Origin: Vairimorpha necatrix
Lineage: Eukaryota
Length of the DNA: 64,000 bases
NCBI GenBank assembly: GCA_036630325.1
Contig: CP142733.1
Coordinates: 1-64,000 of the forward strand
Direction: 5' to 3'
In this document: positions 3,795-50,950 of the stretch, in pieces
How the letters are laid out: each line of letters begins with the position of its first letter
Position numbering within the stretch: the stretch's first letter is position 1
The notes under the pieces: model-generated
What the model was told of the DNA's origin: nothing
The model's input: only the letters and a program-made list of their open reading frames with translations
The model's database searches: none
Translations under genes and position numbers: made by a program

Positions 3795-4260
3795 TATTTA
3801 TCATGATTTTCTTCTTCGTCTTATTACATTTGTATATATATTGTCAAGTTTGGAAAATCTAAAATTTAAATCTCTTAAATTAGAAATTATTTCATTTTAG
3901 ACTAATTATTTTTTCATGATTTTTTTTTCTGTCTTATTGTATATATATATATGTATATAGAATTTTCCTCATTTTAAAAATGAAAATTTCAAAACTCTAA
4001 AATTAGAAATTATTGCAAGTTAGACAAATATTTTTTTTGATTTTTATCAACTTCTTATTTTTTATAAATGTGTATAAATTCTTTTCATCAATAAAAAAAA
4101 AAAAATCAAAATTATGTCATTTTAGATAATTTATTTTTTCATGATTTTATTCTTATTCTTGGTGTTTGAATATATATACTTGTCATCCTTGAATAATTAA
4201 AAATTTGGAAGTTCAAAAAACAAAATAATGACTTATAGCCTACATTTACTTTAAAATTTC
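3795..4260. repeat. Degenerate tandem repeat, about 4 units of ~110-120 bp (also at ~33520-33965)
   Basis: TTTTCATGATTTT...CTTATT...TATATA...CATTTTAGAYAATTATT-like motif recurs near 3800, 3912, 4035 and 4136. Confidence 0.6.
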
Positions 4261-8214: not shown

Positions 8215-8400
8215 AAATAAGTGAATCTAATTAGGATATGTTTATTGTAACTTATATTTATAGTTTAACAAGGATAGGTTCGCGTTAGCGTCTCCTGCTT
8301 GTAGGTTGCTTCTCATCTCCATAGTCCTTCCCACATCAACTTCGTATCCTCTCCTTCGGTAGTCCAGAGAAATGCTTTATTTCGTGATCATCTGGATGTT
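8215..8400 (-). mobile_element. 3'-terminal fragment of RLE non-LTR family B
   Basis: Contains GGTT(C)CGCGTTAGCGTCTCCTG and CATCTGGATG, matching the reverse complement of ~47050-47240. Confidence 0.85.
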
Positions 8401-13700: not shown

Positions 13701-14194
13701 ATATAGACTTGTCAATAATATCAAAAGATTAATTGTGCTACTAGAATATTTAATTTTGAATTTAATCGATTTCAGTTTGTATTATCATCGTTGTATCTTG
13801 TTGTTTATTTCTAATAAACTCTGAATTTTAAGATATTCTGTAAATTTTACATAAAATATATTATTTGGTTTAAAGAATTTATTTGATAGATGTACTAGAA
13901 CAGCTTTGTTTGTCAAATCGATTATAATTTATTGGTAGATCTAAAATATCCTTCATTAGGAATCTGTTTTATTTTATAGTTCTAACGTTATATACATAAC
14001 AAAATCTGGAATTCTAAAATTCATCTTTATTGATAATACTTTATCATAAGTATAATTTTTTACGTTAATTAAATTTATTCCGTGTCTTGTTTTATATATT
14101 TACCGTTTATTTTAATATTAAATTATATTTAGAAATTCGTCTGATTCATAATTTCATTGAAATAATCTAATTATTTTGATAATTTTCATCTTAT

Positions 14195-14485
14195 TTTAAA
14201 TAAATGAATTTAATTAAAGTATGCTTATTGTAGTTTATATTTATAGTTTAACAGGGGTAGGTTCCGCGTTAGCGTCTCCTGTATAAAGGTAGCTTTGTGG
14301 CTCCAAAGTCCATTCCACAAAGGCTTCGTCACCTCTCATTTGGTAGTCGAGAGAATGCTTTCTAGCGTCTTCTTTAACGTTATCATCTGGATGTACGCTT
14401 CTACCTTCTTAGGGATTCCAAGTCTTGTGGTATATGATTTGTAGAACTTAGTCACGATACCGTCCCAAGTGATTAAGTAGGAAAT
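14195..14485 (-). mobile_element. 3'-terminal fragment of RLE non-LTR family B
   Basis: Contains GGTTCCGCGTTAGCGTCTCCTG. Colinear with the reverse complement of ~46960-47240. Confidence 0.9.
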
Positions 14486-15630: not shown

Positions 15631-15669
15631 TGTTATACATTTATTTAATAGGAAAGTTCAACCCTAACA
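15631..15669 (-). repeat. 3' LTR of G2 (39 bp)
   Basis: Minus strand reads TGTTAGGGTTGAACTTTCCTATTAAATAAATGTATAACA and is preceded by a purine tract. Confidence 0.9.
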
Positions 15670-18600
15670 TTTCTCCTTCAAACGGATAGTCTCAGGTTAC
15701 AAGCTTCTAATTAATCATTTTTATAATCTTCTAGGTCATAATGTCGTTTTTTAATGTATCTTCCGCTATCAGTCCTTACAATAAAAGTATCATTCTCATA
15801 CTTTCCCATCATTTTACCAACACTTGTAAATCTTCCTTTTGTACTTTTCATCTATTTACCCAAGTTTTTTATCTTGCGATTCTCACAGCCTGATCTACTT
15901 CAAATTTTTCTCTATGCTTTTGTTTAAACTTACTTGCATACACATTCTTTTTATTGTTTTCAATTAAGACTTCTTTTCCTTGTTCTTTCCATGCTTCCAT
16001 TGGTGTATATTTAATCGCTGTGTGTAGAGTGTTATTATAGGTTCTTGCAGCTTGTTCTAGTTTTTCCTCTGGGTTTCCTTCTTTTTTAATGATCATCGAT
16101 TCCCTCATTGTTCAAATACATCGTTCTATTCTTCAATTACTCCTATGAGCTTCTAAACCTACTTTCCATTGCATAATTTCGTTTTCTATACACCAAATTA
16201 CAAAATTCTTACTAAAAATTCCTTATGTTTTCCGTAATATATTCATCTAGGTATCTATCTCAAATATCCATTTTATAAAGTTTTAGACTAATTTCACTAT
16301 CATTATTTTCTATCTTTGCGTCACATATTCTTGTTCTAAGTAGTCCATCCCTAATAGCACGTATCTTTCTATTTGCCAAATATCCAATACGTTAGAAAGT
16401 TTTTTAAATTTCTTAAATATTGTTACTTAATTGCTACCTCCCATCGTTTTTCTATTATTAATGCTACATACTTCACAATTTTTTAGTGTTGTGGTTATCT
16501 GGTACTTCATACCGGACCAGTACCATCTTTGTTTAATCTTATAATGTGTTTCCTTAACTCCTCGATGATTTAATTCCTCATGAACTCTACGAATTTCTGT
16601 ACTCACTTATTTCTTCGTGTTGTATTTATGAATTACTCCTGTTGAGAACTTCCAAAAGTTTTTTCCTCTTCTAACCATGCGCTTTATTTCTTTCCTTTTC
16701 ATCTATTTTTAGCCCGTTTCTACTTTCGCTGCTTTCTTTCACTTCGTTATTTTAAAATCTCTACTAAGAGCATCCACATACGTCATCCATTCGCCTTTTA
16801 CATATTCAATAGTAGAATCATACTCTTGTATATATTATATCTATCTATTAATTATGTAATTATTGAAAAACGGTTTGTTTCTAATCATGGCCAGTCCTTT
16901 ATGATTTGTCATTTATTGAAATTTACTTCCACCCAAATCTGACTCGATTTTCTTTATTCCAAATAAGGCTGCCAACATCTCTTTTTCACTAATCGTATAC
17001 TTTTTATCTGTTGGTGTTATCATTTTTGATGCTCATTGTATCTGAATCCACCTTCCTTCTTTGTCTTCTTGCAATAGTATGGCTCCAATTCCCGTATCGT
17101 ATGCATCTGTTCTTACTCTACACATTTTTTTTCTATCTACTATTTTTAAAATTTTAATTATCTTTAAACCCTCTTTGATATCATAAAAGCTCTTTCCATA
17201 TCTTCGGACCATTCCCATTATACATCTTTTTTTAGTGCTTCTGTAAGAAACGCTGACCGATAAGCATAATGGGGAATAAAATTTCTTGACCAGCCTGCCC
17301 GTCCCTCAAATTCTCTAAGCTCATTTATGTTGTTAGGCCTTCTGTATTCTTTTGTCACTCGGAATTTATTTTCCTTTGGTTTAATTTCTTCTCCGTTAAT
17401 TGTTACTACAATAATTTTACTTCTCCTTTATATTGTATCTTTTTTAGTTTCTTTTAAACCATATTCTTAGAATTTTCGAAATATTTGTTTTAATAAATTA
17501 TCGTGTATATTACTATCACTTACATGAATAATAATATCATCCATGTATACCTCATAACTTATCTAAAACCCCGTTCATCACTCTTTGCATAATATATGGA
17601 GCATTTTTAAATCCCATTACCATGATATTCCATTCGTAAACTCTAACATTTATCTCAGAGGCTGTCTTATGCTTTTGAGCTTTCTCAATTTCTATATGAT
17701 AGAATCCTTACTTTAGGTCTATAACCATAAATACTTTAGAACCTTGCGTTGCCCTAATAATGTTCTAATCAATGGCAATTCATATGGATCTTTTTAAACC
17801 AGTTCGTTTAAAGCCATCAAATTGAATACCGATCTCACTTCACTATTTGGTTTTTCTATGGGCTTTATTAGGCTTCTCCATTCGCTCTTTGTCCTTCTGA
17901 TAATACCTCTACTTTCTAATAAATTAATATACTATTCTAACTTTTCTCGGAGTTTATAAGGAATATTTTGTTTCTTTTTAACTACTTTTACTCAATGTTT
18001 TGTTTTGATAGAACATTTTCTCCCGGTAAAGTATTTTATTTTCCCTTTGTCTTTTCCTAATACCTCAGGAAATTTTCCTTCCAATTCTTCATATTTATTA
18101 ATATTTTTTCTTCTTTTATCTTGATTTGTATTTTTTATATAAAAACTGTTTCTTGAGTTCTTTCTTCCTACCTCCACTGGTAGTCTCAATTTAAAATCAT
18201 TTCCTTTTAATATTTTCACTTTACTATAATCACGAATGCCAAAATATTTAACACTTTTAATTTCATAATTCTCTTCCTGCCTTCCTTTACGCTCCATACA
18301 ACCTCTAGCTATATGTATATTTCTTCCACATATAAAACAATGTTTTCCTTCTCGTCTTTGATATTGAAAGTTTCTTCCTGGCACTGCTACAGTCCTAGTC
18401 AGATCTCTTTTTTTTTCTCTTTTTAATTTTTCTTTCATACCTCTACCTTTTCTTTTAGTTCTCTACACCTTATTTTTTCCTTGTTCTTATTCTCTTTCTC
18501 TTCACAACTAATTTATCAATTTCATCAATAATATCATTCTAATTTATCATACTAATTAAATTTTTATCAATAATAAAATTTTGAAGTTCAGTAATTACTT

Positions 18601-18739
18601 GTTTCGCCATTTCGTTGTCAAATATTGTACATCTTTTTGCATTATGATGATTGTCTCACTCTTCGAGCTTCTTTTAGTAATTTATTGTTCTCTTAAACAT
18701 GGCTCTCACTTGTTAACCTTTCGTATTTTGTGTTCGCCA

Positions 18740-18777
18740 TGTTATACATTTATTTAATAGGAGGTTCGACTTTAACA
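18740..18777 (-). repeat. 5' LTR of G2 (38 bp)
   Basis: Minus strand reads TGTTAAAGTCGAACCTCCTATTAAATAAATGTATAACA and is followed directly by TGGCGAACACAA. Confidence 0.9.
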
Positions 18778-24657: not shown

Positions 24658-24910
24658 GTGTCAGGCGCAGACCTGCACTGACAATACGGCTTCCAATTAA
24701 ACAATGATTATTGGTGCTGTCAAACATCACCAAGTGTTGTAAACAAACATTAGACATGTTTGACATTCACAAATCTAATTTAAGAAAAGTGCATGTCACA
24801 TGAAGTACTACGTATTAAGTTGAAATTCGGTTTGATGTTTGTTTGTTTACATCTCAAAGAGTTTGACAGTTAATCTAATTGACTATTTAAACGATTTACT
24901 CCTGACCCAC
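24658..24910. other. GC-richer island with nested inverted repeats (possible structured RNA or non-autonomous element)
   Basis: Complementary pairs TGTCAG/CTGACA (24659-64, 24678-83), CTGTCAAAC/GTTTGACAG (24717-25, 24861-69), TGTAAACAAACA/TGTTTGTTTACA (24738-49, 24840-51) and GACATG/CATGTC. Confidence 0.55.
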
Positions 24911-25204
24911 AATTCGAAGAGCAGAAACAAGAAAATATTATAAATCAATATGTTAGTTTTGACTCACCCTCTTCTACTTAGATTTAGGCTACGTGCCGGA
25001 TCATAAGATGTGTAGATACTCCATAAAGAAAAAAAATTATTAATTTGTCATATATTTATTTCTTGTTTTTTTTTTAATTCATATCGCAATATGGAAACAA
25101 TATAGTTTATTTCAGAAAATAACATAATAAATACCATTGTTATAATATATTTAAACAATCTTTACAAATAAATACAACATAATTACTATTATGTTTTCTA
25201 TTAT

Positions 25205-25412
25205 AAAAAATGAATTATTTCAGGATATGCTAACGGTGTTTTATATTTGTAGTATATTCTGAATAGGTTCCGCGTTAGCGTCTCCTGTTTGTGGGCAGCT
25301 TCTCGGCTCTTAGTCCTTTTGAAATCGAAACCTTCACATCTCTTAGTAGTTTATTGGAATAATTTCGTTTGTCTTCTCTGTTAATCATCTTGATGTACGC
25401 TTCTACTTTCTT
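25205..25412 (-). mobile_element. 3'-terminal fragment of RLE non-LTR family B
   Basis: GAATAGGTTCCGCGTTAGCGTCTCCTG and GATGTACGCTTCTAC are shared with the other family B copies. Confidence 0.85.
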
Positions 25413-25447
25413 ATTGTATTTGATAGTTAAACCTATTTTTTATTTTA

Positions 25448-25485
25448 TGTAGGGTTTAGAACCCTTAATAAATAAATGGTTAACA
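25448..25485 (+). repeat. 5' LTR of G1 (38 bp)
   Basis: TGTAGGGTTTAGAACCCTTAATAAATAAATGGTTAACA. Confidence 0.95.
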
Positions 25486-26015
25486 TGGCGAACACAAGGA
25501 TGAACAGGGAAACAAGAGAGTCCCGTAGTCAAGAGGCTAGAACATTAGAGAAAGAGGCAATTAGGATAGATAAGAGACTAAAGTTAATATTGAAAGTTGA
25601 GTGGAAAGATGTTATGGATTTGGCATCTGCGAACTTGCAGGATTATATTTTTGAAAATTTTTGTGACGGAAGGAGCAGTTGGGAGGAAATTTATAAAGGC
25701 TTACAAAAAGGAGCAGAATTTGAGAGAGAGTCAGAAGAAAGACAAGAAATGATTAAAGAGATTATGGATAAAGTGTTGAAAGAGTTTAGGGAAGAAAGAA
25801 AAGAAAATCTTAGGATGTATAGGAAAAGAAGAGAAATCAGAGAAACTACAAAATGTTTTATATGTAAGAAAGAAGGGCATTACGCTAGAAAATGTCATGA
25901 AAGTGTAGCTGGTAGGGAAAAATATAAAATTAAAAAGGAACAAGTTTTACAGAAAGAACCAATTATCAACAATGAAGGGAAAAGATGTAAAACAGTAAAT
26001 AAGTTAGAAAATTAA
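25476..26015 (+). CDS. gag: Short Gag-like protein with CCHC zinc knuckle (true start probably ATG at 25485)
   Basis: CFICKKEGHYARKC = CX2CX4HX4C. Confidence 0.88.
   Translation: MVNMANTRMNRETRESRSQEARTLEKEAIRIDKRLKLILKVEWKDVMDLASANLQDYIFENFCDGRSSWEEIYKGLQKGAEFERESEERQEMIKEIMDKVLKEFREERKENLRMYRKRREIRETTKCFICKKEGHYARKCHESVAGREKYKIKKEQVLQKEPIINNEGKRCKTVNKLEN
25486..25497 (+). promoter_or_regulatory. Primer-binding site (PBS)
   Basis: TGGCGAACACAA starts with TGG (complement of tRNA 3'-CCA) directly after the LTR, and is identical in G2. The primer tRNA was not identified. Confidence 0.8.
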
Positions 26016-27508
26016 TTGAAAAGTATCCGGAAGTTTTTAAAGAATCAGAAGAAAAGATAAAATATCTCACAGGAGAGAAGTGTCCAATAAATACTAAGCA
26101 AGGTGAAAAGGTTGTGAAAAGAGGGCAGAATGTGCCATACTACCTTAGGGTGAAATTTGAGGAGTACTTGAATAAGTTGGAAAATAGAGGGGTTATAAGA
26201 CGTTCCAAAAGTGAGTGGAGGAGTCCAATAAGAGCACTTGAAAAACCAAATGGGGACGTAAGATTGGTAAGCAATTTGATGGCGTTAAACGATTTGGTTG
26301 ACAAGGACCCGTACTCACTACCGTTAATTAAGGATATTATGAGAGCCACACAGGGGTCAAAAGTATTTACGGTTATCGACTTAAAAGAAGGGTTTTATCA
26401 TATTGAGATTGAGGAGCACCATAAGCACAAAACAGCATTTGAAGTGAATGGTCGAGTATACGAATGGAATAGTATGGTTATGGGGTTTAAGAATTCGCCT
26501 CATATAATGCAGAGAGTAATGAACAGAGTTTTAGATGAATTCAGAGGTAAAGGCGTGGAAGTATATATGGATGATATAGTTATTCATGGTAAAGACGTAA
26601 GAGTGCATGACGAGTTACTAGAGAGGGTAATTAAAAAGTTTAAAGAGTGTGGGTTGAGAATAAACCAAACAAAGATACAATACAAAAAAGATGAGGTGAT
26701 GTTGCTGGGAGTAACAATTAATGGGGAGGTCATGGGACCGAATGAGATTAAAAAGCAGGAGACATTGGAATATAGAAAACCTGAGAATGTTAGAGAGTTA
26801 AGAAGATTTTTAGGACTAACTGGTTGGTTTAGAGACTTTATTCTTAACTATGCGTATAGAACAGTAAGGCTTACTGAGGCTTTAAAGAAAGATGTCAAGT
26901 GGAATTGGACGGAGGATATGGAAAGAGCTTTTGAGGATATGAAGCAAGGCTTGAGAGATATGAAAAAGTTGAAGATTCCGGACGGAAAAAAGCCATTTAG
27001 AGTAAGAACTGATGCGTGTGATACGGGGATCGGAGCAATTCTATTACAAGAAAATAAAGAGGGTGAGTGGATTCTTATACAATGGGCATCGAAAATGTTG
27101 ACTCCTACCGAGCGAAGATATACGATAAGTGAGAAGGAGATGTTGGCGGTATTTTTTAGAATAAAGAAGTTTGAAAGTGATTTGAGAGGAAGGAAATTTC
27201 ATTTGATGACGGATCATAAAGCATTAGCAGAGATCAGAAATAAGCCATACTTCAATAATAACAGAATAAACAGATGGGTAGAACAGATACAAGAGTTTGA
27301 CTTTACAATAGAGTATGTGAAAGGGGAGTTGATGACAGATGCAGATGCGTTAAGTAGGCAGTATGATCAGGTAGAAGTTTCGGATGAACAAAAAGAAAAG
27401 GACAACAAGAGAAAAGAAGTGATCGAGAAACAAATTTTGGGAAAAAGCAGAAACATATTAAAGAAAAGGACGGTAAACAGTATTGGGAATTTTCCACAGG
27501 TGAGGTGA
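26003..27508 (+). CDS. pol: Pol: reverse transcriptase + RNase H (frame open from ~26003; listed ORF starts 26114)
   Basis: RT motifs IDLKEGFYH, MGFKNSP and YMDD. RNase H motifs TDACDTGIGA, SEKEMLA, TDHKAL and ADALSR. Confidence 0.96.
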   Translation, partial: VRKLIEKYPEVFKESEEKIKYLTGEKCPINTKQGEKVVKRGQNVPYYLRVKFEEYLNKLENRGVIRRSKSEWRSPIRALEKPNGDVRLVSNLMALNDLVDKDPYSLPLIKDIMRATQGSKVFTVIDLKEGFYHIEIEEHHKHKTAFEVNGRVYEWNSMVMGFKNSPHIMQRVMNRVLDEFRGKGVEVYMDDIVIHGKDVRVHDELLERVIKKFKECGLRINQTKIQYKKDEVMLLGVTINGEVMGPNEIKKQETLEYRKPENVRELRRFLGLTGWFRDFILNYAYRTVRLTEALKKDVKWNWTEDMERAFEDMKQGLRDMKKLKIPDGKKPFRVRTDACDTGIGAILLQENKEGEWILIQWASKMLTPTERRYTISEKEMLAVFFRIKKFESDLRGRKFHLMTDHKALAEIRNKPYFNNNRINRWVEQIQEFDFTIEYVKGELMTDADALSRQYDQVEVSDEQKEKDNKRKEVIEKQILGKSRNILKKRTVNSIGNFPQVR

Positions 27509-28485
27509 AAGAGATATTGAGCCTAGATAGTAGAGAACATGAAATAACAAGAGTACATGAGGAGTTAAACCATAGAGGTGTCAAAGGCACTTATTATAAC
27601 ATTAAACAAAGATGGTATTGGCCTGGTATGAAAGATCATATTAATAAGGTAATTAAGAATTGTGAAATATGTGGGATTAACAATAGGAAAAACACAGGAG
27701 GATGTGATTTCGTAGTAACTAGAAAGAAATTGGAGAAAGTGGCGTTGGATTTAATGGACATAGGTGGAGAGAATAGGTATGTGTTACTGGGTATTGATTA
27801 CTTTACTAGAAGGTTGTGGGGTTCGAATTTGAGATGTAAAGAGAGTAGTGAAGTTATAGAGGTATTACAAAAGTGGATAAGGGAAGATGGATTTCCAGAG
27901 GAATATGTGACAGACAACGGAAAAGAGTTTGTAAGTAATAGATTTAAAGAATGGTGTAGTATTAATGATATTAAACATAGGAAAGTGGGCTTAGAAGCTC
28001 ATAGGAGTAATGGTAGAATCGAGAGATGCATCAGAACTATAAGAGAGACATTGATAAAGCAAAATGATGAGAATATTTCTGAAAAGATAGAAAGAGCAAT
28101 CAAAGGATATAATAATACACTACATACAGCAATAAAATGTACGCCGATGGAAGCGTGGAGAGATCAAACTGCTGAAGTTATAATTGAAAATGATGAAAAT
28201 GGAAAATATGCTGGTCGGTTCAAGAGAAGACACAGAGAGACATTTACAGTAGGCCAAGAGGTAAGAATCGCTAGGAGAGAAAATTTAGGTACACGTGCGA
28301 AAACAGACAAGGGAAGATTCACGGGTCGCGGAAGGATCGTAGCTATAAGTGAAAATGATTCATATATTGTGAGGCTACTGGATGGTAAAATTGTTAAAAA
28401 GAGGCATTATGATTTGAAAGAGATAAGGAAGAGTTGTTTAGAAGATGGAGAGACTACCCGTCTGGAGGGGGGATGTATGGTTTAG
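27505..28485 (+). CDS. Integrase (HHCC zinc finger, DDE core, GPY/F-like tail), -1 frame from RT-RNaseH
   Basis: HEELNHRG...CEIC, ALDLMD, TDNGKEF and SNGRIERC. The stop codon lies inside the 3' LTR. Confidence 0.95.
   Translation: MKEILSLDSREHEITRVHEELNHRGVKGTYYNIKQRWYWPGMKDHINKVIKNCEICGINNRKNTGGCDFVVTRKKLEKVALDLMDIGGENRYVLLGIDYFTRRLWGSNLRCKESSEVIEVLQKWIREDGFPEEYVTDNGKEFVSNRFKEWCSINDIKHRKVGLEAHRSNGRIERCIRTIRETLIKQNDENISEKIERAIKGYNNTLHTAIKCTPMEAWRDQTAEVIIENDENGKYAGRFKRRHRETFTVGQEVRIARRENLGTRAKTDKGRFTGRGRIVAISENDSYIVRLLDGKIVKKRHYDLKEIRKSCLEDGETTRLEGGCMV
28464..28473 (+). promoter_or_regulatory. Polypurine tract (PPT)
   Basis: GGAGGGGGGA immediately 5' of the 3' LTR. Confidence 0.9.
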
Positions 28486-28511
28486 AACCCTTAATAAATA
28501 AATGGTTAACA
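28474..28511 (+). repeat. 3' LTR of G1 (38 bp)
   Basis: TGTATGGTTTAGAACCCTTAATAAATAAATGGTTAACA. Confidence 0.95.
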
Positions 28512-29725
28512 TTTTATATAACACAAAAATGTTAGTATTGATATTATATTATATTTTTATTCAAATGTATATATGTCTTCTTTATTATACTCTATAAACT
28601 ATCTTATTTAAATTTTTAATATATCATTTTTATTTAATCATAATATATTTAAAATATTTTTTTTCAAATATTTTCCTTAAATAAAGATAATTTTAAATAT
28701 TCAAAAAGATTAGTTTCATTAAATATAATAGACAAGATTATAATGAATCTAGCATCGATAAAAAATATTTGAATTCTACAAGGCTTGATCTGATGATTTA
28801 TCCTTCATTTAGTATTTATTGTATTATAATCCGTTGTTATAATTATCTTTATCTCTCAAAAAAGCAAAATTTATTACCGAAAACAAAATTGCTACACACC
28901 TTTTTTACATGGCCAACATGTATTTTCTAAATATATTTTTATTTATACTAAACTTTAGATTTTTACTGATATATATAAAATAATCATTCTTATTTATTTA
29001 TAGAATTTTATATCGTATATACGTTTTTATGATATATTTTTTTTATTAAACTCATTTAATTATTTATTATAATAGAATGATAGTCTTTAATTTGGTATTT
29101 TTATAATGTTCTAATTATTAAATAACTTTACATTTGAAATATTTTGTTCTACTTTGACCTTAATTATAACTGTAAACAGTTTATATGATAATTCAGAATT
29201 TATTTATTACTAAAATATTATTTAAACTTGAATGTTAACTAATAAAGACTTTCAAAGCTGATATAGAAGCTTTGTCATCATGCTATTACAATGTGGTTTT
29301 TCGAGAAAAATATACTATCAGTATCATTTAGTGTATGCACAAACTTTCAAATTTTATTATATGCTAAATTTCTTATCTGATAAATTTCGCTTTTCGATTG
29401 TTATAAAATTTTCGTAAATGTTAATGATCCTTCATTAGATAATATTTCTAGACACACTCTTCTTTTGTCATAATATTACTCTCTTCCTAATTTTATTTTT
29501 TCATGTAAGATAAGAGAGAACCATTACATAGAATTTTGTTAACAATAAATTTGTTCTCATAAGTTTAGTGTAGGTAGTTTATTGATAAATACCGATTTGA
29601 ATTCTCATACAAACTACAGAAAGTACATATTGTAAATTTTTTTCGTTTCAGAACATATATTTTATCTATCTTTGAATTACATCGTCAAGATTCACTGCTG
29701 ATAAGAAACTAAGATTTAAATAATT

Positions 29726-32700
29726 CTAAATTGCAAAACCATGTACATAATTTACTAACACAAATAACACTTATCATTACATGAATCTTTTACGCGACTA
29801 TTAACATTACTAAAATTTGATCCTGCTTTCTACGAACTTCTTCGACCACCAGTTATTCGAATTTTTTCAAATGAAGATTTAGAATCGTATAAAAGAAAAG
29901 AAGATGCTCCTAGATAAATTCTTCTAGTCGTTAATAACCATTAACAAATTCCATTAAACACTGCATCAGTAATGTTTTTTTAAAAACTGGCCTCTTTCTG
30001 AAAACACGATCGATGTAAACATCAATTTTATTTCTAGTTGTAAGTGAAATTGTTCATTAATAGTAAAGTTCTATTTTTATATTTTTTTGAGCTCATTGTA
30101 CCATAAAATTTTTTAAAGATTTCCAAAATAAACTTTGTCGTGCTGGGAACAAAAAAGTAAATCTTAATAGTCATTATGGAAAAGGCTTAGTTACAATAGT
30201 TTTTTCTAGCGACGTTAATCTTAAAGATAAAGGACTGGATATTCATTTTATATCGCATGGATATTTCAACATTTCTACATATTCAGTGGCAACTACGAAA
30301 AAATAAAATTTTAAAATAGTTATTAAAACTACTTTATATAATATTACTCATAATTTTTATAAAAAAATCTTCTCTAATTTACATAAGGAACATTCTTTCT
30401 CAGTTTATTAATACTCTATATGTAAATTTTCCTTAAATTACCTCATTGATTATAAAATTGTATCAAAAACGGTTTGTCATTTTAGTTTTGAACATAATAT
30501 TTTTTTTATACACACTATATTTATTGCTGATGCAAGTTTTATATTCAAATTTATTAACTTAAAAATTTTTACATACATATTTTTATGTATAAAGTCCAAG
30601 TTATTTTTGATTTTTAAAGAGTGTGTTGAATTTGCATCATTTTGATCTTTATATTATATTTTATTGTCTATACGTTTCTTGTCATTTTCAAATAATAATT
30701 GAAAAATATAAATACTTCAAATTATTATATTTTATATAATTTATTTTTTAAGTAAGAATTTATCTTATTTTTGATTTTACACAAACATTGAATCATGCGG
30801 CTTTACTTAAAAATCACTTTTATAACAAGTTGATTATATTAATTCGACATGAATTGTACGTATTAAGTGTATTTCATCTAGGTTTCATAAGGTAACTTCA
30901 ATATTTACTTAAGGTCTAGATTTTATTTACAACTGATATTTATTAAAAGAATACATCTTTATTAAAGAATCAGTAATACTTTAATAACACGAAATTCTTA
31001 ACGATTATCAAATGTGTAACCTTATGTTTTGTTATACGATAGAGGATTAGGTTCAGATTTACGGAACAAACAAATAACAATTACAGTATTGCTATTTTAA
31101 TAATGATATATGTGTTCCTTGTTCTTTATACGAGGAATGTAAGCTATTGATTCATCTAAAATAAATATTGAAATGTTTTTCAAAGAAATTGTTTCTTTTA
31201 TTTTGTAAATATTAATTTCTCGCATATATATATTTTCCCACTTAATATTATAAATGGCTTGAACATATTATCCAATTGTTTTTGTAAGAAACGACATTTT
31301 GATAATCTTTCATCTAGGGATTTGTTTTTCTACCAAAAAAAATTAGTGTACGGAATTATGTTTTAGAAATTAAAAATAAAGACAAAACGAGTTAATTTGT
31401 TTTCTGAATACTTTATTTTTTCTCAAATTATTTTAATGTAGCTTATCATGTGAATATAATGTCGTTTTCTTTTTTATCGAACATAAATAAAATATGTGCA
31501 TTTTTTTAAAAATTTAATTTACAACCAAATTAATCCCAGGAAGGTTCATTAAAATTTATGTCTGCATATATAAAATCCATGGTATAATATCTAATGTGAA
31601 CAATAAATTTGGTTTAGTGTACAGTTTTATAACTATTTTTAGATCTGAAATCATTTTATTTGTTTTCTTTTCTATTGTATATATCGTCCTCTTCTCTATT
31701 TGAATTTTTTATGATTTAGATAGTCTAATTATTTGCGCACAGAAAATATATCTATTAGGGGTGTAATTCAAAAATATAATACTTCAATTGTTTTTTAGAT
31801 ATGTTATATTTAAATGATCATTCACCCCATCTTAAGGAAAATATTTTCATCTCTGGAATATTTAAAAAATATAGTATTCCAAAATGAATTTTTTCCATTG
31901 TTAAGATTATATAATTTCACAATAAAATGTTAACGTAATGAAATCTAAACATATCAAATATTAAATTGCAGAATTATATTACTCTATTGTATATATGTTG
32001 TAAAAAATGATTTTATTTATAATCAAAATCACAAATAATTATAATCTCGTGTTTCCCACTTTATATTTCCTTTATTTTTCAACTTTTGTTCAGTTTACTA
32101 TCTTTAATAACTGATTATTTCTCTTCTATTTTTGGTTTTGTAAGTCAAAATTACTATATCAGTCCTATAGAATATTGTTAATAGTATATTCACACTGACT
32201 TTTTATCTTAAAGGATAAATGAAACGTGAATTAATCTTTTAATTTGTCTCTAATTTTGTTTTTGGGTTTAACTATTATCTTGCCAAAGAGAACAATGATT
32301 TGATTGTTTACAATACTTAATTTTCATCGATTGGGTTCTTTAATATAATTTGTTTACTCTTTTTTCATATGAAATGTTTTTTCTTTATTAATTAATCGAT
32401 ATTATAATAACTCAGAAACAAACATAATTTCTTATTATATATCATTAAAAACGTTATTGTTTAATATGTTAAGTCTGTACGAATAAAAGATATTATGTAA
32501 TTGATTCTGGGGTATTTCATTCTTTTATACATAGATACATCTGATTGTTGCAATTAACATGAACTTATAAATATGAATTTTATTTCTTAGTATATTTATG
32601 TATTTTTATATTAAGCACTTGCCTTGTTTATTATATCTACACATAACTTAGTAAAAATTTATAAATTTTGTTGGCATTTTGAATTTCTAGTATCATTTAA

Positions 32701-39436: not shown

Positions 39437-41635
39437 TTATACGTTTCCTTTTAATAATTGTATCAAATTATCGTGAAGTTTTATTCCACATTCGGAATTT
39501 ACAAATTTTATCAAATCATTTTCTACCACATTGAAATTAAATTTTTTGTGTACCTTTTCATTATGATCTTTTGCAAGAGAATCGTCTTGTAATTGTCTAC
39601 TAAATATTTCTGTTAAAGCATTAGACAACTCTGATAAAATCTTATTTATTATTGATCTAGTAAATTCTTGAGCAAATTCATTATATATTTGTTCTTTAAG
39701 TTCTATTTTAAGATCATTTATTGATTCTTCTTCCATCCCTTCTAACCCTACAAAATCCATGAATATTTGATCAATTAAGTTAAATATATTTGTTTTGAAT
39801 TCATTCTGTAGTTTTGTAATTAATTCTCCGTCAAATATGTTTTCTATGTTTTTACTTTGACAATCTACTATTATTAAATTTATTTTTTCATATAATCCGT
39901 ATTGTGAAACAATTAGTTTGATTTTTTGCATTTGTTCTTCTCTTAATTTTCTCTCTTGTTCATATTTTTTATCGATTTGTTCATTTTCTAATAATCTTCT
40001 TCTTATAATTTTTGAATCGTGTTCGACATTATTTTTACAAAGTTTCAAATTCGAAATGGCTTCATCTTTTGAAAAGCGTTCTGGATTATTTCGAAAAATT
40101 AATGCAGTATCTAATCCTGTAAGTACAGATATTATCTTACATATCATAAATATAACTTCATGATTATATTTAAGAATGTCATTAATATAAATATTTGATA
40201 TTTCATGAATAACAAGCGAAATAGAAGTTTTTTCATCTTTTTGGTTTTTAGATTTTATTAATTTTATAATGTCATTTAAAGAATTATAAAAAAAATCATT
40301 GTGCTGTTTACACTCTGTCATTAAATCTTCTATCTCTAGCACTAAACAAATTTTTAGAAAATAGGAAGATTCTGACATATTGTTAACTGAAAACAATCTC
40401 AATAATGATTTTTCAATTTTCTCAATTATATTTCTTGCATTCGTTATTTTTCCTAAAATGATATCTAGCTCGTACTTTTTTATTTCTTTTGTATGTAAAA
40501 GAATGTGACCAAAAAAAATATTTACAGCCGATCTTTGCTTATTTAGAATTCTCTTTACGAGAGATTCTACTTTTTTATTTTTCTTTAGTAGTCTAAAGAG
40601 AAATTCTAATCCTTTTCCATCGTCTAAATTTCCAATAACGGATATTTTTTTCAAAATTTCCTTAAACTTAACATGACATTGTTCATCAATATACACGCAA
40701 TTTTCGTATTTATTCTGTCCTTCTAGGACGTAAAGATATTTATTACAAGGTATATTGAAAATTATCCTGTCAGATTCTATCTCAATTTTTAACGACAAGT
40801 TCTCTAGTTCTATTTGATTTAACGAACATTTTAGATTATTTGTTTTATAATATTCCATTACTCCGTCAATAAAGTCGTATTTGTATAGTTTCAAAAGCTT
40901 TGCAAATATTTCTTTGTCAAGTTCGTTTTTATATTTATCTATCGGAAGTAAATCAATTTCATCATGACTAAAGTCGCTAATATCAAATTCGAATAAATAA
41001 AACACATCCGTTATAATGATGCGCAGCGTAATTCGATAATTATCTTCATAATCTTTCATGATGTAAATAATAGGTATGTCGGAGAAGATAATTTCGTTGT
41101 TATTTGTTGATAAATGTGTTTTAAGTTTCCAGGTCATTAGTTCTAAAAGATTAAATTGATCACAAATATTTTCATAATAAATTTCATATGTCTTCTTTTT
41201 AATCTTTCTTTTTTTGTTGTTATTTTTCATATTTTCTATTACATCTTTCATGATGGGATATTTTTTTAATTGTGATGCATTATAGAACAATATAACGCTA
41301 TGATTATTTTGTAAATTAAAAAATCTTCTAATATTATCTTCAATTTTATCAATTATGAAACTTATAGTCTTATATTTGTAATTCAAAATAGAAAAAGTAT
41401 TTATGTTGCGATTTACTTCATCATAAAAATTATGATTCCTTTCCAATATTGTCATCATCATATCTTCTTCTAATTCAAAGAAAAACAACCAAACTTTACA
41501 ATATTGTTTGTTAATATCAAAAATAATATAATCGTAAGAGCCGATTTTGTTCAAAAAATTATCCTTAATCAGTGTGTATAATACATGATTTAAGTATACA
41601 AAAAATAATTGTAAAAATATTCTTAAAATTTGCAT
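39437..41635 (-). CDS. Hypothetical protein, 732 aa, probable signal peptide; family member 1
   Basis: Long ORF in AT-rich DNA with a hydrophobic N-terminus and GCCCAT before the ATG. Shares motifs with the 54594 and 63710 genes. Confidence 0.9.
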   Translation of the reverse strand: MQILRIFLQLFFVYLNHVLYTLIKDNFLNKIGSYDYIIFDINKQYCKVWLFFFELEEDMMMTILERNHNFYDEVNRNINTFSILNYKYKTISFIIDKIEDNIRRFFNLQNNHSVILFYNASQLKKYPIMKDVIENMKNNNKKRKIKKKTYEIYYENICDQFNLLELMTWKLKTHLSTNNNEIIFSDIPIIYIMKDYEDNYRITLRIIITDVFYLFEFDISDFSHDEIDLLPIDKYKNELDKEIFAKLLKLYKYDFIDGVMEYYKTNNLKCSLNQIELENLSLKIEIESDRIIFNIPCNKYLYVLEGQNKYENCVYIDEQCHVKFKEILKKISVIGNLDDGKGLEFLFRLLKKNKKVESLVKRILNKQRSAVNIFFGHILLHTKEIKKYELDIILGKITNARNIIEKIEKSLLRLFSVNNMSESSYFLKICLVLEIEDLMTECKQHNDFFYNSLNDIIKLIKSKNQKDEKTSISLVIHEISNIYINDILKYNHEVIFMICKIISVLTGLDTALIFRNNPERFSKDEAISNLKLCKNNVEHDSKIIRRRLLENEQIDKKYEQERKLREEQMQKIKLIVSQYGLYEKINLIIVDCQSKNIENIFDGELITKLQNEFKTNIFNLIDQIFMDFVGLEGMEEESINDLKIELKEQIYNEFAQEFTRSIINKILSELSNALTEIFSRQLQDDSLAKDHNEKVHKKFNFNVVENDLIKFVNSECGIKLHDNLIQLLKGNV

Positions 41636-44600
41636 ATGGGCAAGTTATGAGAAAATATAAAAAAATTCATATATTAAATGATAGATGAAATGTTTAAAAC
41701 ATAAACGTCGATCAAAAAACTTTTACATAACAAAAAAATTTGTACTTTTTTGCTTTGCATAATACATCGAGAATAGGTTTCTGTTACGATTACATTTGAG
41801 CCAATCACATTTGCTATTTTAGAATTTATGCAATATATTTAGGTCATTATGATATATCAAAACCTTGGCAAAGAATACTTTATTTATATAGACACACTTC
41901 TTTTTTATCAACAGGCGAAAAAAATCTGAAATTATACCTTGCAATATGTTATATAAACTTTGATTTCTATCAATGACTAAACATGATCTAACTATGCTCG
42001 AAGAGCAGAACAGGAGATCATATGGAATAACAGAAAAAAAGGATTAAAAAAATATAAGATTGTTTTTTAAGGAAAAACTCAAGACCTCTAATTGCAGCAA
42101 TAATTATATAGGTATTCTATTTTTTTGTATTTTGTGATATATTATAAAGTAAGAAACTTCTTTATAAAATACTTTGAAAAGATAATTTGAAGATTGAGCA
42201 GCAAACATACTTTAGTTGTCTTAAAAATAAGTCTCTTTTTATCTTACAAGTCGACTCAGAGCCATTATATAATTTTTTTAAAAACATTTCAACGCTTTAT
42301 CATAAACCCATTATAGAAAATAATCTTAATCGATTCTTCAAAAGAAAAAATATCTATAGACCATAACAAAATTAATTCTTCTTCGTCATTTTTTTATATG
42401 AATTTGCTATCAAAAAGTCGAAATTAGCAATTCGTGTACTCAAGTTATAAGATAAAGACCAATTTGAATTTTTTTACATATAATTTATGACGAAAATAAA
42501 CGAAAAAAAATTGTATCATACGTATATGTTGATCCCAGCTTCAACAAATTTTTTTTGTCTTTGATATTTAAAAAATGGCAGTTAAAAGATCAATAAATTT
42601 GACGTAGAACATGTATTACTAGGAAATTTTAAATAACATAAAATATGTATATATATATTCAATGATTTTTCCACTTAGGACTCATAAATTTAGCAATCTT
42701 ACAATAAAACAGATGAAAAGTACAAATTAATTTTTTTTAATGGTAACTAGTCATAAAATACTAAAAATAATTAAAGCAAAGTATATATCAATATATTTTT
42801 ATATTTGACATAACGTTTATTTGAAAGTAATTTTTGGCAGACGCATGTAAATAATAAATAAATTTTTCAATAACTAAATTATAGTGGTTTTCAAACGATT
42901 ATTTATTTTAGGTTAATATAATTTTTTTTACCGTTTAGGTATATCTTAAAAATCTTTTTTCTTTCTAATTTTTACATGAAAATTATTTTTATTAAAATAA
43001 AGAAAGTCGAGACTATGTGTTTTTAATCATCAATATTCTATGCGAGTATTATATTTAAACTGCTTATTATTTTCTTAAGATGAAAATATCTTTATAGAAG
43101 TCTCCCATTTTTATAATATTCAACGTAACAAACAAAAAAAATAATAATAAATAATAAAAACAATATTTTTAATAAATTATATTGAAAATAGAAGAAAAAC
43201 ACAAACCTTATAAGTTTTACAAATAACGAATCTTTAGTATTATTTTACAATGAGTGACTAAACAACTCTATAAGTCTTTATAAGTCTATTAATTTTTAAA
43301 ATATTTTAAAAACCATAAAAACAAAAATTTTAAAAAATATATAAATAAATAGGGCTGTACAATATATTATGAAACAGTTTGTATAGAACCTGATTATTTT
43401 GATGATAATTATCTCGACATTAGTAAATTTATTATTTATTAAACATCATAAAACATGCTAATTACAACTTAAACCAGTTTTTACTTAATATTCGTACAGA
43501 TATATATATATATATATATATTTGTTATAGACTTTTCTGACAAAGTTGATTATTTAAATGATATAAAATGAAACTAGATACTATATACGACTAAAAAATA
43601 ATTGGGCCTTTTCTCGGATTGTATAAAAATGTCATAGATCATTACTTGTAGGTTCATTTTATAATCTACTGCAAATATTTTACTAAATAGTATTGTCTAA
43701 GTAAGAAAAAAATATTTTTTAAATTTAAAATAGAACCAGATGAATATATTAATTCAAAATTCTAAAGACTATTTTAATTATTTACATTATAAAAAATGCA
43801 TTTTTTTAAATTATAGGCAATGTTTTATAGATTTTAAAAAAATAGATGTTACTACTATAATAACTGATGAAAATACCATCCAAGCAAGTTTACTGTGGTC
43901 TAAAATAATGTATTTATAAAGATAAAATGTTTTTTTTAATCGATTTGATTATAAAAACACTAAATTCTGCATAAATTATTTTACTGGCCCATTTACTTTT
44001 ACATTATAAAATAATAGAAGTATCCAAAAATCAATATAACGCTCAAGAATGAATGTATTGAAATACAAAAAAAATTGGATTCGTCAATACAATATTTACA
44101 AAAGTGTCAAATTCACATAACACCACTTTTTTAAAAAAAATCGCACTGAATTATAAAAGAAAAATGCGATGAAGACAATGATGTATATAAAAACTTTTAA
44201 AGTTATCGGAAGTCTCATATTGCTTAAAAAAAGATAGAAATAAATACATAAAAAAATGAGTTTATTTGAAATAATTTAAGAAGTAGAAAGAGTTCATGTG
44301 TCAATTTAAAAACATATTAAAATGATGCTTTAATTGTTTTATGTAAAAAGATATCAAAGTTTACGCGATTGAAAAAGCCCCAACAGATTTTGTTAATAGC
44401 TTAGAACTTGTTAGATTATAGTAGAAGACGTCATTGAAAGTTTTGCACTTTATAAAAACGAGATAGTGAAAATAAGAAAATTTTAAAAGAACGATTGATC
44501 GAAAATTTACGAAAGATATAAAATTTGAAGTAAATGGAAAAAGATAAATAATATAAGTTAGTTAAAATTATGCAATAATAAAGATTCTTAATTAATAAAA

Positions 44601-46854: not shown

Positions 46855-47240
46855 ATTCACAAGAGAATCTACAGCAAGTAGAAAACGATAAGTTAAGAAA
46901 GTATGATGTCCTTGCGAATGAACTGGGTCTAATAATTGGTTTTAAAACAGAAATAATATTCTACGTAATTACTTGAGAAGGTATAGTGAACAAGTTTCAC
47001 AAATCTTATACCACAAGACTTTTAATCCCTAATATGGTAGAAGCGTACATCCAGATGATCACGCTAAAGAAGACGCTAGAGAGCATTTTCTGGACTACCG
47101 AAGGAGAGGAGACGAAGCCGATGTGGAAAGGACTATGGAGATGAGAAGTCACCTACAAGCAGGAAACGCTAACGCGGAACCTATTCTTGTTAAACTAAAA
47201 ATATAAATTACAACAAGCATACCCTAATTAAATTTATTTA
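46855..47240 (+). mobile_element. 3'-terminal fragment of RLE non-LTR family B (longest copy)
   Basis: Translates as VENDKLRKYDVLANELGLI...VEAYIQMITLKKTLESI, homologous to the C-terminus of the 51385-52848 ORF but with a different 3' tail. Confidence 0.9.
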
Positions 47241-48070
47241 TTATATCATAATTATGGGTAAGATTTATCAAAATATATAACAGTTAATATATTACGAAAT
47301 ATTTAACACATTGGATTCTAGAAAAAGTTTTATAAATTTCAAAATTTTTTATAACTTTCATAATTTTAAGAGTCATTAAAAGTCAAGAACCAAATGTTTT
47401 TCAAATATTTTAATAACTATAAAATTTTTCGTTAACATAACGTCTTAAAAATAATTTCAAATCGATTAAAATATGTATTTAAAAAAAATTTAAACGTTGA
47501 AATTGCATTTTATTTGTATGTATGTTTCAATATTTATATTGGCCTACCAAATAGCTTTTTTCATTAAAATTAAAGCTAATTAGGTAGTTTGAAAAAAATA
47601 GTTCCAAATACTTATAATAGAATCATCTGAATAGACAAAACACAAATATTATTTTACAGACAGATTATGCCTAAAACGAAGTTTCAAAATTTTGCAGTTA
47701 AACAAGACAAATGTAGAAATACACTACTGATTTAGTAATAAAAATATTAATGATGTTATTCCCAAATTATTTTCATGTATCAATAATACTTACAAGAAAG
47801 GATATAAAAAAAAAGTAAAACAATCAATTTGTAGCGTAAAAGCACCCTTAGACGATTTTTAAATCCAGAAATTTTAGTATAGAATAAAAAATTGTTTGTT
47901 GTAGCTAAATATGCAATGTAATTAATTGCAAAGATCGAAAGTGTATAAATTTACAATATTCCTTTTTTATTGATTATAAAATAATTTGAGTATATATAAA
48001 ACGTCATAAAAATTTTAAATCTACAAGAAAGAGCATTACATACATTTAATAAAAATTTTATTATTTCTAA

Positions 48071-50387: not shown

Positions 50388-50950
50388 TTATTCCACAGCT
50401 AATGATTTTACAAAACATTTTGTCTGACAATCTATAAATTTATCCAGCTTTTTACATATATTGATAATTTCTTCATCATGTCCTAAATTTATTTCCTTCA
50501 CGTGTATAAAGTTTTGACCATCAACATGTTTTTCGATATCATTGTCTATGAGTACGCATTGTTCTAATTTTACATTAAAGTGCTTAGAAACTACTTCTAA
50601 ATTTTTTATATTATTTTTTGCTTTATCTTTTCAGTAATAATACCCTCTTCACATTCCTCTTGTCCAAAATAGCCTAGATGAAAATTATACCCAATCTCTT
50701 CCAAGTAAGGAATCATCTTTTTGATATTATGTTTCATAGATGTAGACCAAAATACATAATTAATATTGTGTATCTCTAAAAATTTAACTAGTAAATCTGT
50801 AAGTGGTCTTTTCAACAAAATATGATTATTACAACTGTAGGTATTGTTTTTCTGATTGTCAGTTAAACTGTCTAAAACATATTTATCAGTTTTTTTTATC
50901 TTAGAAATTAACGTATCATTTATATCAAAAACTAGTAGAAATCCTTCCAT
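50388..50950 (-). pseudogene. FCP1/NIF-like HAD-superfamily phosphatase with one frameshift (~50615-50625)
   Basis: LLVFDINDTLI (motif I), KRP...FL and FWSTS. After a -1 shift the frame continues KNLEVV...CVLIDNDIEK to TAA at 50388-90. TTTTACCC precedes the ATG. Confidence 0.75.

Follow-up and report, generated by a model that had tools for sequence, protein, structure and literature searches.

A lineage of microsporidian Ty3/gypsy retrotransposons that appears to encode no aspartic protease

The branch of Ty3/gypsy-type LTR retrotransposons represented by the elements G1 and G2 almost certainly encodes no protease of its own anywhere in the lineage. By the textbook account, LTR retrotransposons and retroviruses depend on an aspartic protease encoded by themselves for the release of Gag, reverse transcriptase (RT) and integrase. 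Since the protease is missing from the whole lineage, elements of the G1/G2 type must copy themselves without one of their own. Both elements lie in the 64-kb stretch of DNA that was analysed, hereafter the window. A preliminary description of it had remarked on the absence of an aspartic protease between Gag and RT in both copies and had attributed this to their lineage. The absence was confirmed for both elements by Pfam, our own HMM, profile–profile and structural comparisons, all of which were negative, and its extension beyond the two copies is supported by relatives, models and the RT tree.

G1 is a Ty3/gypsy-type LTR retrotransposon of 3064 bp on the forward strand (25448-28511). Its LTRs, 38 nt long and of the form TGTA...AACA, occupy positions 25448-25485 and 28474-28511 and are flanked by the target-site duplication TTTTA (25443-25447 before the 5' LTR and the same five letters at 28512-28516 after the 3' LTR). 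The 5' LTR holds a CCC motif as well as AATAAA, and the ORF's first ATG also falls inside it. This LTR is followed by the primer-binding site (PBS) TGGCGAACACAA (25486-25497), which starts with TGG and doubles as code for the polyprotein N-terminal residues (M)ANT; relatives start with MANTR. Three frames on the same strand follow one another, namely a mini-Gag frame of 179 aa (25476-26015; open reading frame, Pfam and structure model), an RT-RNase H frame of 501 aa (26003-27508; RVT_1 at nt 26240-26719, RNase H at nt 26906-27298), which shares 84% identity with a protein of Nosema granulosis, and an integrase frame of 365 aa (27388-28485; H2C2 at nt 27532-27687, rve core at nt 27757-27981), the stop codon of which is situated within the 3' LTR. 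Coding extends from LTR to LTR, the ORF opening in the 5' LTR/PBS and closing in the 3' LTR. The order RT, RNase H, integrase was established with Pfam (RVT_1 1.7e-31, RT_RNaseH 1.3e-30, Integrase_H2C2 9.8e-15, rve 8.7e-11), and YMDD and the H2C2 motif are readable. A polypurine tract (PPT), GGAGGGGGGA, was read from the sequence at 28464-28473 (+); its equivalents are GGAGGAGGGGA in the metagenome locus L001 and GAAGGAGAAA in G2.

The LTRs were delimited by repeat alignment inside a 40-nt repeat (25447-25486 / 28473-28512) with an identity of 98%, and a 27-nt core of the LTR occurs exactly twice in the window. In contigs of the public run X2 with two different flanks, loose ends break off at 25446/25447. 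The empty site was found in another public run, X1, where a contig runs straight from 25384-25448 into sequence that matches 28518-28534, TTTTA being present once. G1, which has LTRs with TG..CA ends, a PBS, a PPT and a target duplication, is a genuine and recent transposition. Its LTRs had been called near-identical, which is true (37/38 positions), though they are just 38 nt long; recent activity had also been suggested and is backed by this identity, the 5-bp duplication and the empty site. In contrast to non-autonomous elements of the LARD/TRIM-like kind, defined by having no RT/integrase coding, G1 has RT, RNase H and integrase. A search of the 64-kb window for a tRNA gene found none. Self-priming of the Tf1 type was considered and ruled out by eye, there being no PBS complement within the G1 LTR.

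The gag, pol and integrase frames of G1 are split by two breaks. At the first of them (~26010-26012) every covering contig of the public runs X1-X4 has one extra letter behind 26011, and at the second the contigs of X1-X3 have one extra letter behind 27441; the alignment of G1 with L001 contains a 1-nt gap at each. Judged from these sequences, the split comes from one letter missing at each of the two places, a peculiarity of this copy or of its assembly, and is not a part of the element design. There is also a 9-nt deletion relative to the contigs of other runs, and because of this deletion and the two frame breaks G1 as assembled may be non-functional. A programmed -1 frameshift where gag and pol overlap was rejected as an explanation, since a canonical slippery heptamer is lacking and since P0001, P0089/L001 and the contigs of the four runs are in frame there.

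The expected place of the protease in G1 is the linker that joins the zinc knuckle to RT (25896-26020, +), which holds the first frame break. It comprises about 42 codons when counted to the conserved RT start (KYPEVF, from 26021) and 115 codons when counted to where the Pfam RVT_1 match begins (26240); the earlier estimate of about 70 codons falls between these values. The D-[ST]-G motif, described as missing, is indeed absent from the gag frame and from residues 1-90 of the pol frame. None of the 77 stop-to-stop frames of at least 25 aa in the six frames of 24900-28900 matched protease families of Pfam (E<=0.1 for 75 frames, E<=1 for the two long pol frames). A clade-specific protease HMM, for which 21 protease-bearing relatives were used, gave nothing in six frames of G1, G2 and the whole 64-kb window (best E 2.4-6). 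When 28 N-terminal regions from G1's clade, all of them complete, were compared with protease profiles by hhalign, the probabilities were 0.0-0.1%; in the positive control, 97.5% (E 5.5e-12) was obtained for the sister lineage against a protease profile made from the outgroup only. Structure prediction agrees with these searches: the linker is of low confidence and predicted to be disordered in the G1 Gag model, and in the whole-polyprotein model of the relative P0090 residues 158-192, from the knuckle to RT, have a pLDDT of 28-30, with RT beginning at ~196. No concealed retropepsin fold is present in either model. The HMM and structure checks that had been suggested for a hidden domain thus detect no retropepsin in the place where a Ty3/gypsy element is expected to have it, between Gag and RT. 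Matches to Peptidase_A17 (Pfam) in four of 45 clade members, the best with E 0.0023 and below the cutoff, were treated as cross-matches, because in the two members with known coordinates (P0090, 483-590; P0127, 506-615) they sit in RT-RNase H, overlapping RT_RNaseH_2, and not before RT.

G2 (15631-18777, reverse strand) belongs to a related subfamily and has decayed; it is ~67% identical to G1 and has many stops. Read from the sequence on that strand, it consists of a 5' LTR (18777-18740), a PBS with the same letters as in G1 (18739-18728), a CCHC knuckle (18339-18298), a linker of 74 codons (18297-18076), the RT start (18075), the PPT GAAGGAGAAA (15679-15670) and a 3' LTR (15669-15631). Its flanks, TATAT and TATAA, agree at 4/5 positions. 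The longer linker without a protease, reported earlier for G2, is real, but the frame containing it runs over 17992-18462 and does not end at 18438. Pfam gave no protease match in this frame or in the 30 frames of the sense strand, and our own protease HMM gave nothing in all six frames of G2 (best E 2.4).

The Gag of G1 includes a helical domain (aa 11-124), a CCHC knuckle (aa 127-140, nt 25854-25895) and a low-confidence tail (aa 141-179). In the model, with a pLDDT of 93-98 over aa 21-140, only helices and the knuckle are seen. The knuckle has the form CX2CX4HX4C, and its residues C127, C130, H135 and C140 are invariant in 30 aligned sequences; the Pfam zf-CCHC match (E 0.003, 18 bits) is under the 20.8-bit cutoff. 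A nucleocapsid zinc knuckle of the kind expected in a Ty3/gypsy Gag is therefore present. No match to Retrotrans_gag or Ty3_capsid was found in the G1 frames with Pfam, and Foldseek found nothing for the Gag model at E<=0.001. VIA-align gave a top Z of 6.8 with generic helical bundles. Among the listed fold matches there was neither a capsid nor a retropepsin fold, and the resemblance to retroviral nucleocapsid fingers was confined to local matches of the knuckle with E>1. A search with Gag alone against 1.84 billion representatives gave 29 matches at E<=0.001, nine of them at E<=1e-10; every one of the 29 was either a short piece of Gag or a generic knuckle protein. Prediction of a two-copy complex of Gag residues 1-145 scored 0.00 with the alignment unused and is neutral on oligomerisation.

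The protease-less clade includes single-ORF polyproteins of ~1000 residues from Nosema, Vairimorpha, Enteropsectra and Nematocida. Intact members, ~3.0-3.3 kb in length, start with a short helical domain at the N-terminus, which is followed by a single CCHC knuckle, a disordered linker that varies, RT, RNase H and integrase. Every relative that was found is a polyprotein of the Ty3/gypsy type. In trees made up of Ty3/gypsy-type rows, the RT of G1 nests in a supported clade of them. In a tree of 77 rows G1 belongs to a clade of 45 rows with an SH-like support of 89 (34 complete N-termini without a protease, 11 truncated N-termini and no protease-bearing member). In a 46-row IQ-TREE analysis its clade consists of 24 rows, all protease-less, with an SH-aLRT of 91, and a core of 22 rows has a starred value of 95. 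The RT phylogeny, which had been proposed as a check, shows that protease loss marks a clade, every member of G1's clade being without the domain. The domain was not deleted in G1 and G2 alone, for intact relatives of ~1000 residues are likewise without it. P0001, one of the sequences that are in frame at the gag/pol overlap, is from Nosema granulosis.

With RT identity dropping to about 40% within it, representatives in several genera and intact ORFs, the protease-less clade is evidently old. Comparison of G1 with L001 gave a pN of 0.151 against a pS of 0.815 for RT-RNase H, and a pN of 0.242 against a pS of 0.711 for integrase; by these values the coding sequence of the lineage is under strong purifying selection. 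The positions that correspond to YMDD and the H2C2 motif, D385/D386 and H709, H714, C744 and C747, are invariant in 45 relatives in an alignment made without G1. The knuckle and a conserved cysteine in RT are 57 to 204 residues apart, and the linker alignment of the relatives contains no conserved cleavage-like site, only loose NK..Y and KR patches being common. Of the metagenome loci, L001 with its 3' LTR and L006 with both LTRs were the only informative ones; in L002-L005 and L023, which are truncated or rearranged copies, no LTR pairs were found.

The nearest protease-bearing relatives are a sister lineage, P0124, P0126, P0128, P0132 and P0133 together with the locus L006, which by the RT tree forms one super-clade with the protease-less lineage (starred value 98). 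Unlike G1's clade, it has a domain of ~95 residues just before RT that matches an aspartic-protease profile from end to end, and it is without the CCHC knuckle that G1's clade has. Like the G1 family, it has short LTRs (66 nt in L006) starting with TGTTA and an ATG across the LTR/PBS junction. Its active-site triads are mostly non-canonical; DTG, DLG, DRG, DPG, DAG and DSA were recorded in protease-bearing relatives. Precomputed Pfam annotation missed the weak domains of the five named proteins, so divergent proteases do exist in the super-clade. Our HMM recovers the domain in protease-bearing relatives, including these five (E 2.5e-17 for P0132 from Enteropsectra breve). The more distant P0137 from Nosema granulosis also has a protease (RVP, E 2.1e-5).

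It may be proposed that retrotransposition of these elements would be completed without specific proteolytic maturation. The polyprotein would work uncleaved as one multifunctional protein, in which the N-terminal knuckle module would be a tethered nucleic-acid chaperone (tRNA annealing, strand transfers) and not a shell-forming capsid, and RT/RNase H and integrase would act from the same chain. In our opinion, such an uncleaved multifunctional polyprotein is the most likely mode for G1-type elements, and we put its chances at about even. A fuller version, which we regard as possible rather than probable, would be a self-sufficient LTR element with neither processing nor a capsid shell, in which one protein of ~115 kDa primes, reverse-transcribes and integrates as a ribonucleoprotein. 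Protease mutants of Ty1, Ty3, Tf1 and retroviruses fail to complete transposition or infection, so the uncleaved mode would be without precedent among LTR elements, and we know of no LTR element that uses it. Cutting of the polyprotein by a host (microsporidian) protease in the disordered linker, and perhaps also between RNase H and integrase, would outsource maturation; we consider this rather unlikely. The linker, predicted to be disordered in both models, contains many K, E, N and R residues and would be an easy substrate, also for a non-specific host protease, and a semi-conserved KR patch lies ~15 residues ahead of RT. However, the linker alignment offers no conserved site, its length is highly variable, and the RNase H-integrase junction of P0090 is modelled as helices with just two 3-residue stretches of pLDDT <50.

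Use of a retropepsin of co-resident Ty3/gypsy elements in trans, which would make G1-type elements protease-dependent parasites, seems to us improbable. Protease-bearing microsporidian elements do exist (P0137, P0132 and, in a passage of Williams 2008, elements of Nosema bombycis), and the occurrence of P0137 in Nosema granulosis, the nearest named genome, leaves room for a helper. At the same time, a clade so old, with intact ORFs in several genera, is unlikely to have kept sites compatible with a foreign protease, and none is conserved; moreover, our HMM found no protease-like sequence in the 64-kb window, and the closest protease-bearing lineage has mostly non-canonical triads (DLG, DRG, DPG, DAG, DSA). 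The failure of precomputed Pfam in five sister proteins might suggest that a protease is present in G1 but too divergent, or placed elsewhere in the element, to be recognised. This is very improbable: the linker of ~42 codons is too short for a domain of ~95 residues, all domains of the LTR-to-LTR coding are accounted for, and nothing emerged from hhalign, from the HMM specific to the clade or from either of two structure models. The stops of G2 and the two frame breaks of G1 would fit dead deletion derivatives of a protease-bearing family, but we give this reading a negligible chance, because the intact single-ORF relatives (34 complete N-termini) are also without the domain, contigs of four public runs show the same architecture without the breaks, and strong purifying selection acts on the coding sequence.

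An old, diversified and selected protease-less lineage means that the LTR replication scheme may run uncleaved or that the host may take over maturation, and either way the minimal autonomous LTR element would be redefined. Annotation tools that demand a protease before calling an element autonomous would be affected. The genome compaction of microsporidia reaches their mobile elements, as the 38-nt LTRs, the coding that overlaps the PBS and LTRs and the mini-Gag illustrate. The lineage offers a small, tractable system for asking which functions of Gag and protease are indispensable. If the capsid-free, uncleaved reading is true, protease and capsid would be non-essential to the LTR replication scheme, and the element of ~3.06 kb would be, to our knowledge, the smallest autonomous LTR retrotransposon described.

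Microsporidia-specific Ty3/gypsy groups with a single polyprotein, stressed as being unlike other Ty3/gypsy elements, were described by Parisot et al. 2014 (PMC4202319). The relatives of G1 resemble these groups in their microsporidian named sources and the single gag-pol ORF, and the frame breaks of G1 are missing from public-run contigs; judged by their description, the G1 family very probably falls within them. The word 'protease' does not occur in the main text of that paper, and its supplementary file 2 contains none of 'protease', 'RVP' and 'peptidase', so that, as far as these texts extend, loss of the domain is not stated there. A passage of Williams 2008 attributes five domains to 'nearly all' Nosema bombycis elements of Xu et al. 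2006. Our literature searches found no report of a Ty3/gypsy lineage without a protease.

Summarizing the comparison with known systems, G1 is by descent a Ty3/gypsy derivative missing the canonical retropepsin. It shares with canonical Ty3/gypsy elements (Metaviridae, for example yeast Ty3 and fission-yeast Tf1) the order RT-RNase H-integrase, the RNase H and H2C2 types, the CCHC knuckle, LTRs with TG..CA ends, a PBS starting with TGG, a PPT and a 5-bp duplication, and its intact relatives have one gag-pol ORF, as Tf1 does. Unlike them, it has no retropepsin, its Gag consists of ~125 helical residues and one knuckle, in which no capsid fold was recognised, its LTRs are of 38 nt in an element of 3064 bp, and its ORF extends from the 5' LTR/PBS into the 3' LTR. 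Retroelements working without a protease are known, namely DIRS, Ngaro, LINEs with a knuckle-bearing ORF1 and, with its polymerase, hepadnavirus. These differ from G1 in sharing no descent with it, in having other integration enzymes or none and in lacking the combination of LTR, PBS and PPT with a DDE integrase; as analogies, they are systems in which an unprocessed multidomain protein reverse-transcribes and a small nucleic-acid-binding partner replaces the processed capsid.

The Ty3/gypsy-type retrotransposon G1 (25448-28511, plus strand, 3064 bp) contains a gag frame (25476-26015, 179 aa), an RT-RNase H frame (26003-27508, 501 aa) and an integrase frame (27388-28485, 365 aa), all on the plus strand. 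Pfam matches in it comprise a weak CCHC knuckle, RVT_1, RT_RNaseH, Integrase_H2C2 and rve, with no other notable one. The related copy G2 (15631-18777, minus strand) is decayed, with stops throughout, and about 67% identical to G1 over 2.5 kb. The best protein matches to G1 belong to Nosema granulosis (84%), Vairimorpha necatrix, V. apis and Pseudoloma neurophilia, and accordingly the host is a microsporidian of Nosema/Vairimorpha type. The window has a G+C content of about 22% and two islands with higher G+C and strong purine skew, one of which harbours the three G1 frames. The coding strand of G1 at 26001-28000 shows 36% G+C, a GC skew of +0.47 and an AT skew of +0.22 against the background of about 22% G+C, and a mirror-image skew was found for G2 at 16001-18000.

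The preliminary description reported no aspartic protease between Gag and RT in either copy, and Pfam, a custom HMM, profile-profile comparison and structure models all agree with this. The G1 knuckle extends to 25895, and KYPEVF, the conserved beginning of RT, starts at 26021, giving a gap of about 42 codons; the corresponding gap in G2 is 74 codons. No protease family was found by Pfam in any of 77 stop-to-stop frames of at least 25 aa from the six frames of 24900-28900 (75 scanned at E<=0.1 and two pol frames separately), nor in the 30 sense-strand frames of G2, which matched only fragments of RT, RNase H and integrase. A custom protease HMM was based on 21 relatives that carry a protease, and another on the four closest; the domain is retrieved by the custom HMM in protease-bearing proteins, and no match was obtained in the six frames of either copy or of the entire window (best E 2.4 to 6). 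When complete N-terminal regions of 28 members of the clade around G1 were aligned, profile to profile, with three protease profiles, the probabilities were 0.0-0.1%; the positive control reached 97.5%. The AlphaFold model of G1 Gag (mean pLDDT 82.8) consists of helices 11-36, 43-49, 52-62 and 69-124, followed by the knuckle and a low-confidence tail. In the model of a related polyprotein, P0090 (mean pLDDT 82.1), residues 158-192 between the knuckle and RT have pLDDT 28-30, and the remainder is wholly assigned to RT, RNase H and integrase. Thus, the six-frame HMM search and the structure prediction proposed earlier yielded no retropepsin and a low-confidence or disordered linker. A protease hidden in the element is very unlikely.

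A longer search retrieved dozens of proteins of about 1000 residues, each encoded by a single ORF on a contig of about 3.0-3.3 kb, the named sources being Enteropsectra breve, Vairimorpha necatrix, Nematocida minor, N. parisii and Pseudoloma neurophilia. All 45 relatives studied have Pfam matches to RT, RNase H and integrase, and 23 of them to zf-CCHC. Weak protease matches (gag-asp_proteas in 4, Asp_protease_2 in 3, Peptidase_A2B in 1) are those of P0124, P0126, P0128 and P0133, cover the whole profile and lie just before RT; 17 of 17 protease-bearing outgroup proteins score on these models. The custom HMM adds a protease in P0132, P0053 and the truncated P0041.

Phylogeny of RT-RNase H was studied by FastTree using 77 rows (G1, 45 clade members, 11 shorter relatives and 20 outgroup proteins), leaving out 56 more distant rows that passed the coverage filter. 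A microsporidian-type super-clade of 57 rows was obtained (starred support 98). Within a 45-row clade (support 89), G1 is grouped with complete protease-less N-termini (34 rows) and N-truncated proteins (11), and protease-bearing ones number 0; the 11-row sister clade includes six protease-bearing, three protease-less and two N-truncated rows. A quick IQ-TREE search with 46 hand-picked rows recovered an entirely protease-less 24-row clade (SH-aLRT 91) with a 22-row core (starred support 95), and requires at least 2 changes of protease state, the starred branches alone being compatible with 1. Protease loss therefore marks the clade of G1 in both trees and, as had been supposed and as the intact relatives without the domain also indicate, is lineage-wide and not restricted to two copies. 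It is very unlikely that G1 and G2 are dead deletion derivatives.

The protease-bearing sister lineage (P0124, P0126, P0128, P0132, P0133, P0053 and the metagenome locus L006) seems to be intermediate between keeping and losing the protease. A CCHC knuckle is absent from it, and its active-site triads are DTG (in one protein), DLG, DRG, DPG, DAG and DSA. Non-canonical triads need not mean inactivity, because DLG is also present in one outgroup protein. L006 has 66-nt LTRs (41-106 and 3924-3989) and the PBS TGGCACCCGAGC.

G1 is flanked by a direct repeat (25447-25486 and 28473-28512, 98% identical), which, read with its flanks, gives plus-strand 38-nt LTRs TGTA...AACA at 25448-25485 (5') and 28474-28511 (3'). 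The PBS TGGCGAACACAA adjoins the 5' LTR on its 3' side, the PPT GGAGGGGGGA adjoins the 3' LTR on its 5' side, and TTTTA stands on either flank. G2 has the same layout, with LTRs of 38 and 39 nt, a 12-nt PBS identical to that of G1, the PPT GAAGGAGAAA and flanks matching at 4 of 5 positions. Within the window, the two G1 LTRs are the only places with the 27-nt LTR core. The ends of G1 are confirmed by contigs of public runs: two contigs of run X2 with differing upstream sequences both end at 25446/25447, and an X1 contig passes from 25384-25448 into 17 letters that equal 28518-28534 at 15 of 17 positions and match the window nowhere else; this contig is an empty site with a single TTTTA. Therefore, G1 inserted genuinely and fairly recently, duplicating 5 bp of the target, and its recent activity, already suggested in the preliminary description, is corroborated by the empty site, the duplication and the near-identical LTRs. 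At least one sequenced relative or haplotype lacks the insertion.

The first ATG of G1 lies inside the 5' LTR (ORF 25476-), the PBS codes for the conserved N-terminus MANT(R) (25476-25497), and the PPT with the start of the 3' LTR codes for the integrase C-terminus and stop codon (28464-28485), so that G1 is coding end to end. The LTR contains a CCC motif, AATAAA and ATG. It is plausible that these 38 nt include both a promoter and a poly(A) signal, since Peyretaillade et al. 2009 (PMC2803860) describe microsporidian 5' UTRs as very short and report AAUAAA signals and a CCC-like motif immediately 5' of start codons.

Two frame changes in G1 are single-letter gaps relative to L001, a metagenome locus (that of P0089) with a relative 75% identical to G1. 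One extra letter follows 26011 in every covering contig of runs X1-X4 and 27441 in covering contigs of X1-X3; nine extra letters follow 25591 in gag in X1, X2 and X4; and the gag/pol junction of Nosema granulosis P0001 is in frame. The three-frame layout is hence either peculiar to this copy or a fault of the assembly. G1 as assembled is a slightly defective copy or contains assembly errors, and the family design is one ORF.

Comparison of G1 with L001 gave pN 0.151 and pS 0.815 for RT-RNase H, 0.242 and 0.711 for integrase, and 0.396 and 0.794 for the C-terminal part of Gag with the linker, i.e., synonymous sites are saturated and non-synonymous change is low. The 3' LTR of L001, 38 nt like that of G1, is preceded by a PPT. 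These coding comparisons indicate a lineage long persistent under selection. Contigs with this family are filed as bacterial MAGs (L001, L002, P0028, P0044, P0047, P0089) under the labels Clostridium (L001 among them), Turicibacter, Bacteroidales and Aeromonas, probably by binning contamination.

An uncleaved polyprotein, a host protease or a protease supplied in trans had been proposed for such elements. Fold searches of the model detected no capsid fold in the short helical N-terminal domain with its one knuckle. The disordered linker is of widely varying length, the knuckle and the conserved RT cysteine being 57-204 residues apart, and is conserved only in loose NK..Y and KR patches. From the lack of a protease and of a detectable capsid fold, the variable disordered linker and the long persistence, we infer that the polyprotein may work uncleaved, with the knuckle module as its tethered chaperone; in our opinion, this is the most likely mode, held with middling confidence. 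A host protease might cut the exposed linker, a rather doubtful possibility. Borrowing of a protease from a co-resident element is improbable, as the clade is old and widely spread and has no conserved site.

The window also contains four copies, 70-76% identical, of a repeat of about 200-250 nt that is unrelated to G1 (25199-25413, 14192-14411 and 8216-8329, plus strand; 47037-47245, minus strand), one of which ends about 35 nt upstream of G1. The stretch 29726-30500 is a repeat of 1-785, dispersed or segmental, with 85% identity over about 790 nt. Five long host-like frames of 296-735 aa (39437-41644, 51385-52899, 54582-56231, 61414-62304, 62535-63737) match no Pfam family at E<=0.01; a 124-aa frame (50606-50980) matches NIF phosphatase.

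Three microsporidia-specific Ty3/gypsy groups, each with a single polyprotein, were described by Parisot et al. 2014 (PMC4202319), whose main text does not mention a protease and whose supplementary file 2 contains no such term. The accessible part of a 2026 genome paper restates only the single-polyprotein point (PMC13174016). No Ty3/gypsy lineage without a protease turned up in full-text literature searches. Williams et al. 2008 (PMC2474625) attribute all five domains, Gag, protease, RT, RNase H and integrase, to nearly all elements of Nosema bombycis. The abstract of another paper (PMC3281118) states that reported LTR retrotransposons are mostly longer than 4 kb. It may be concluded that G1, which departs from canonical Ty3/gypsy elements in having no protease, is nevertheless their derivative by descent.
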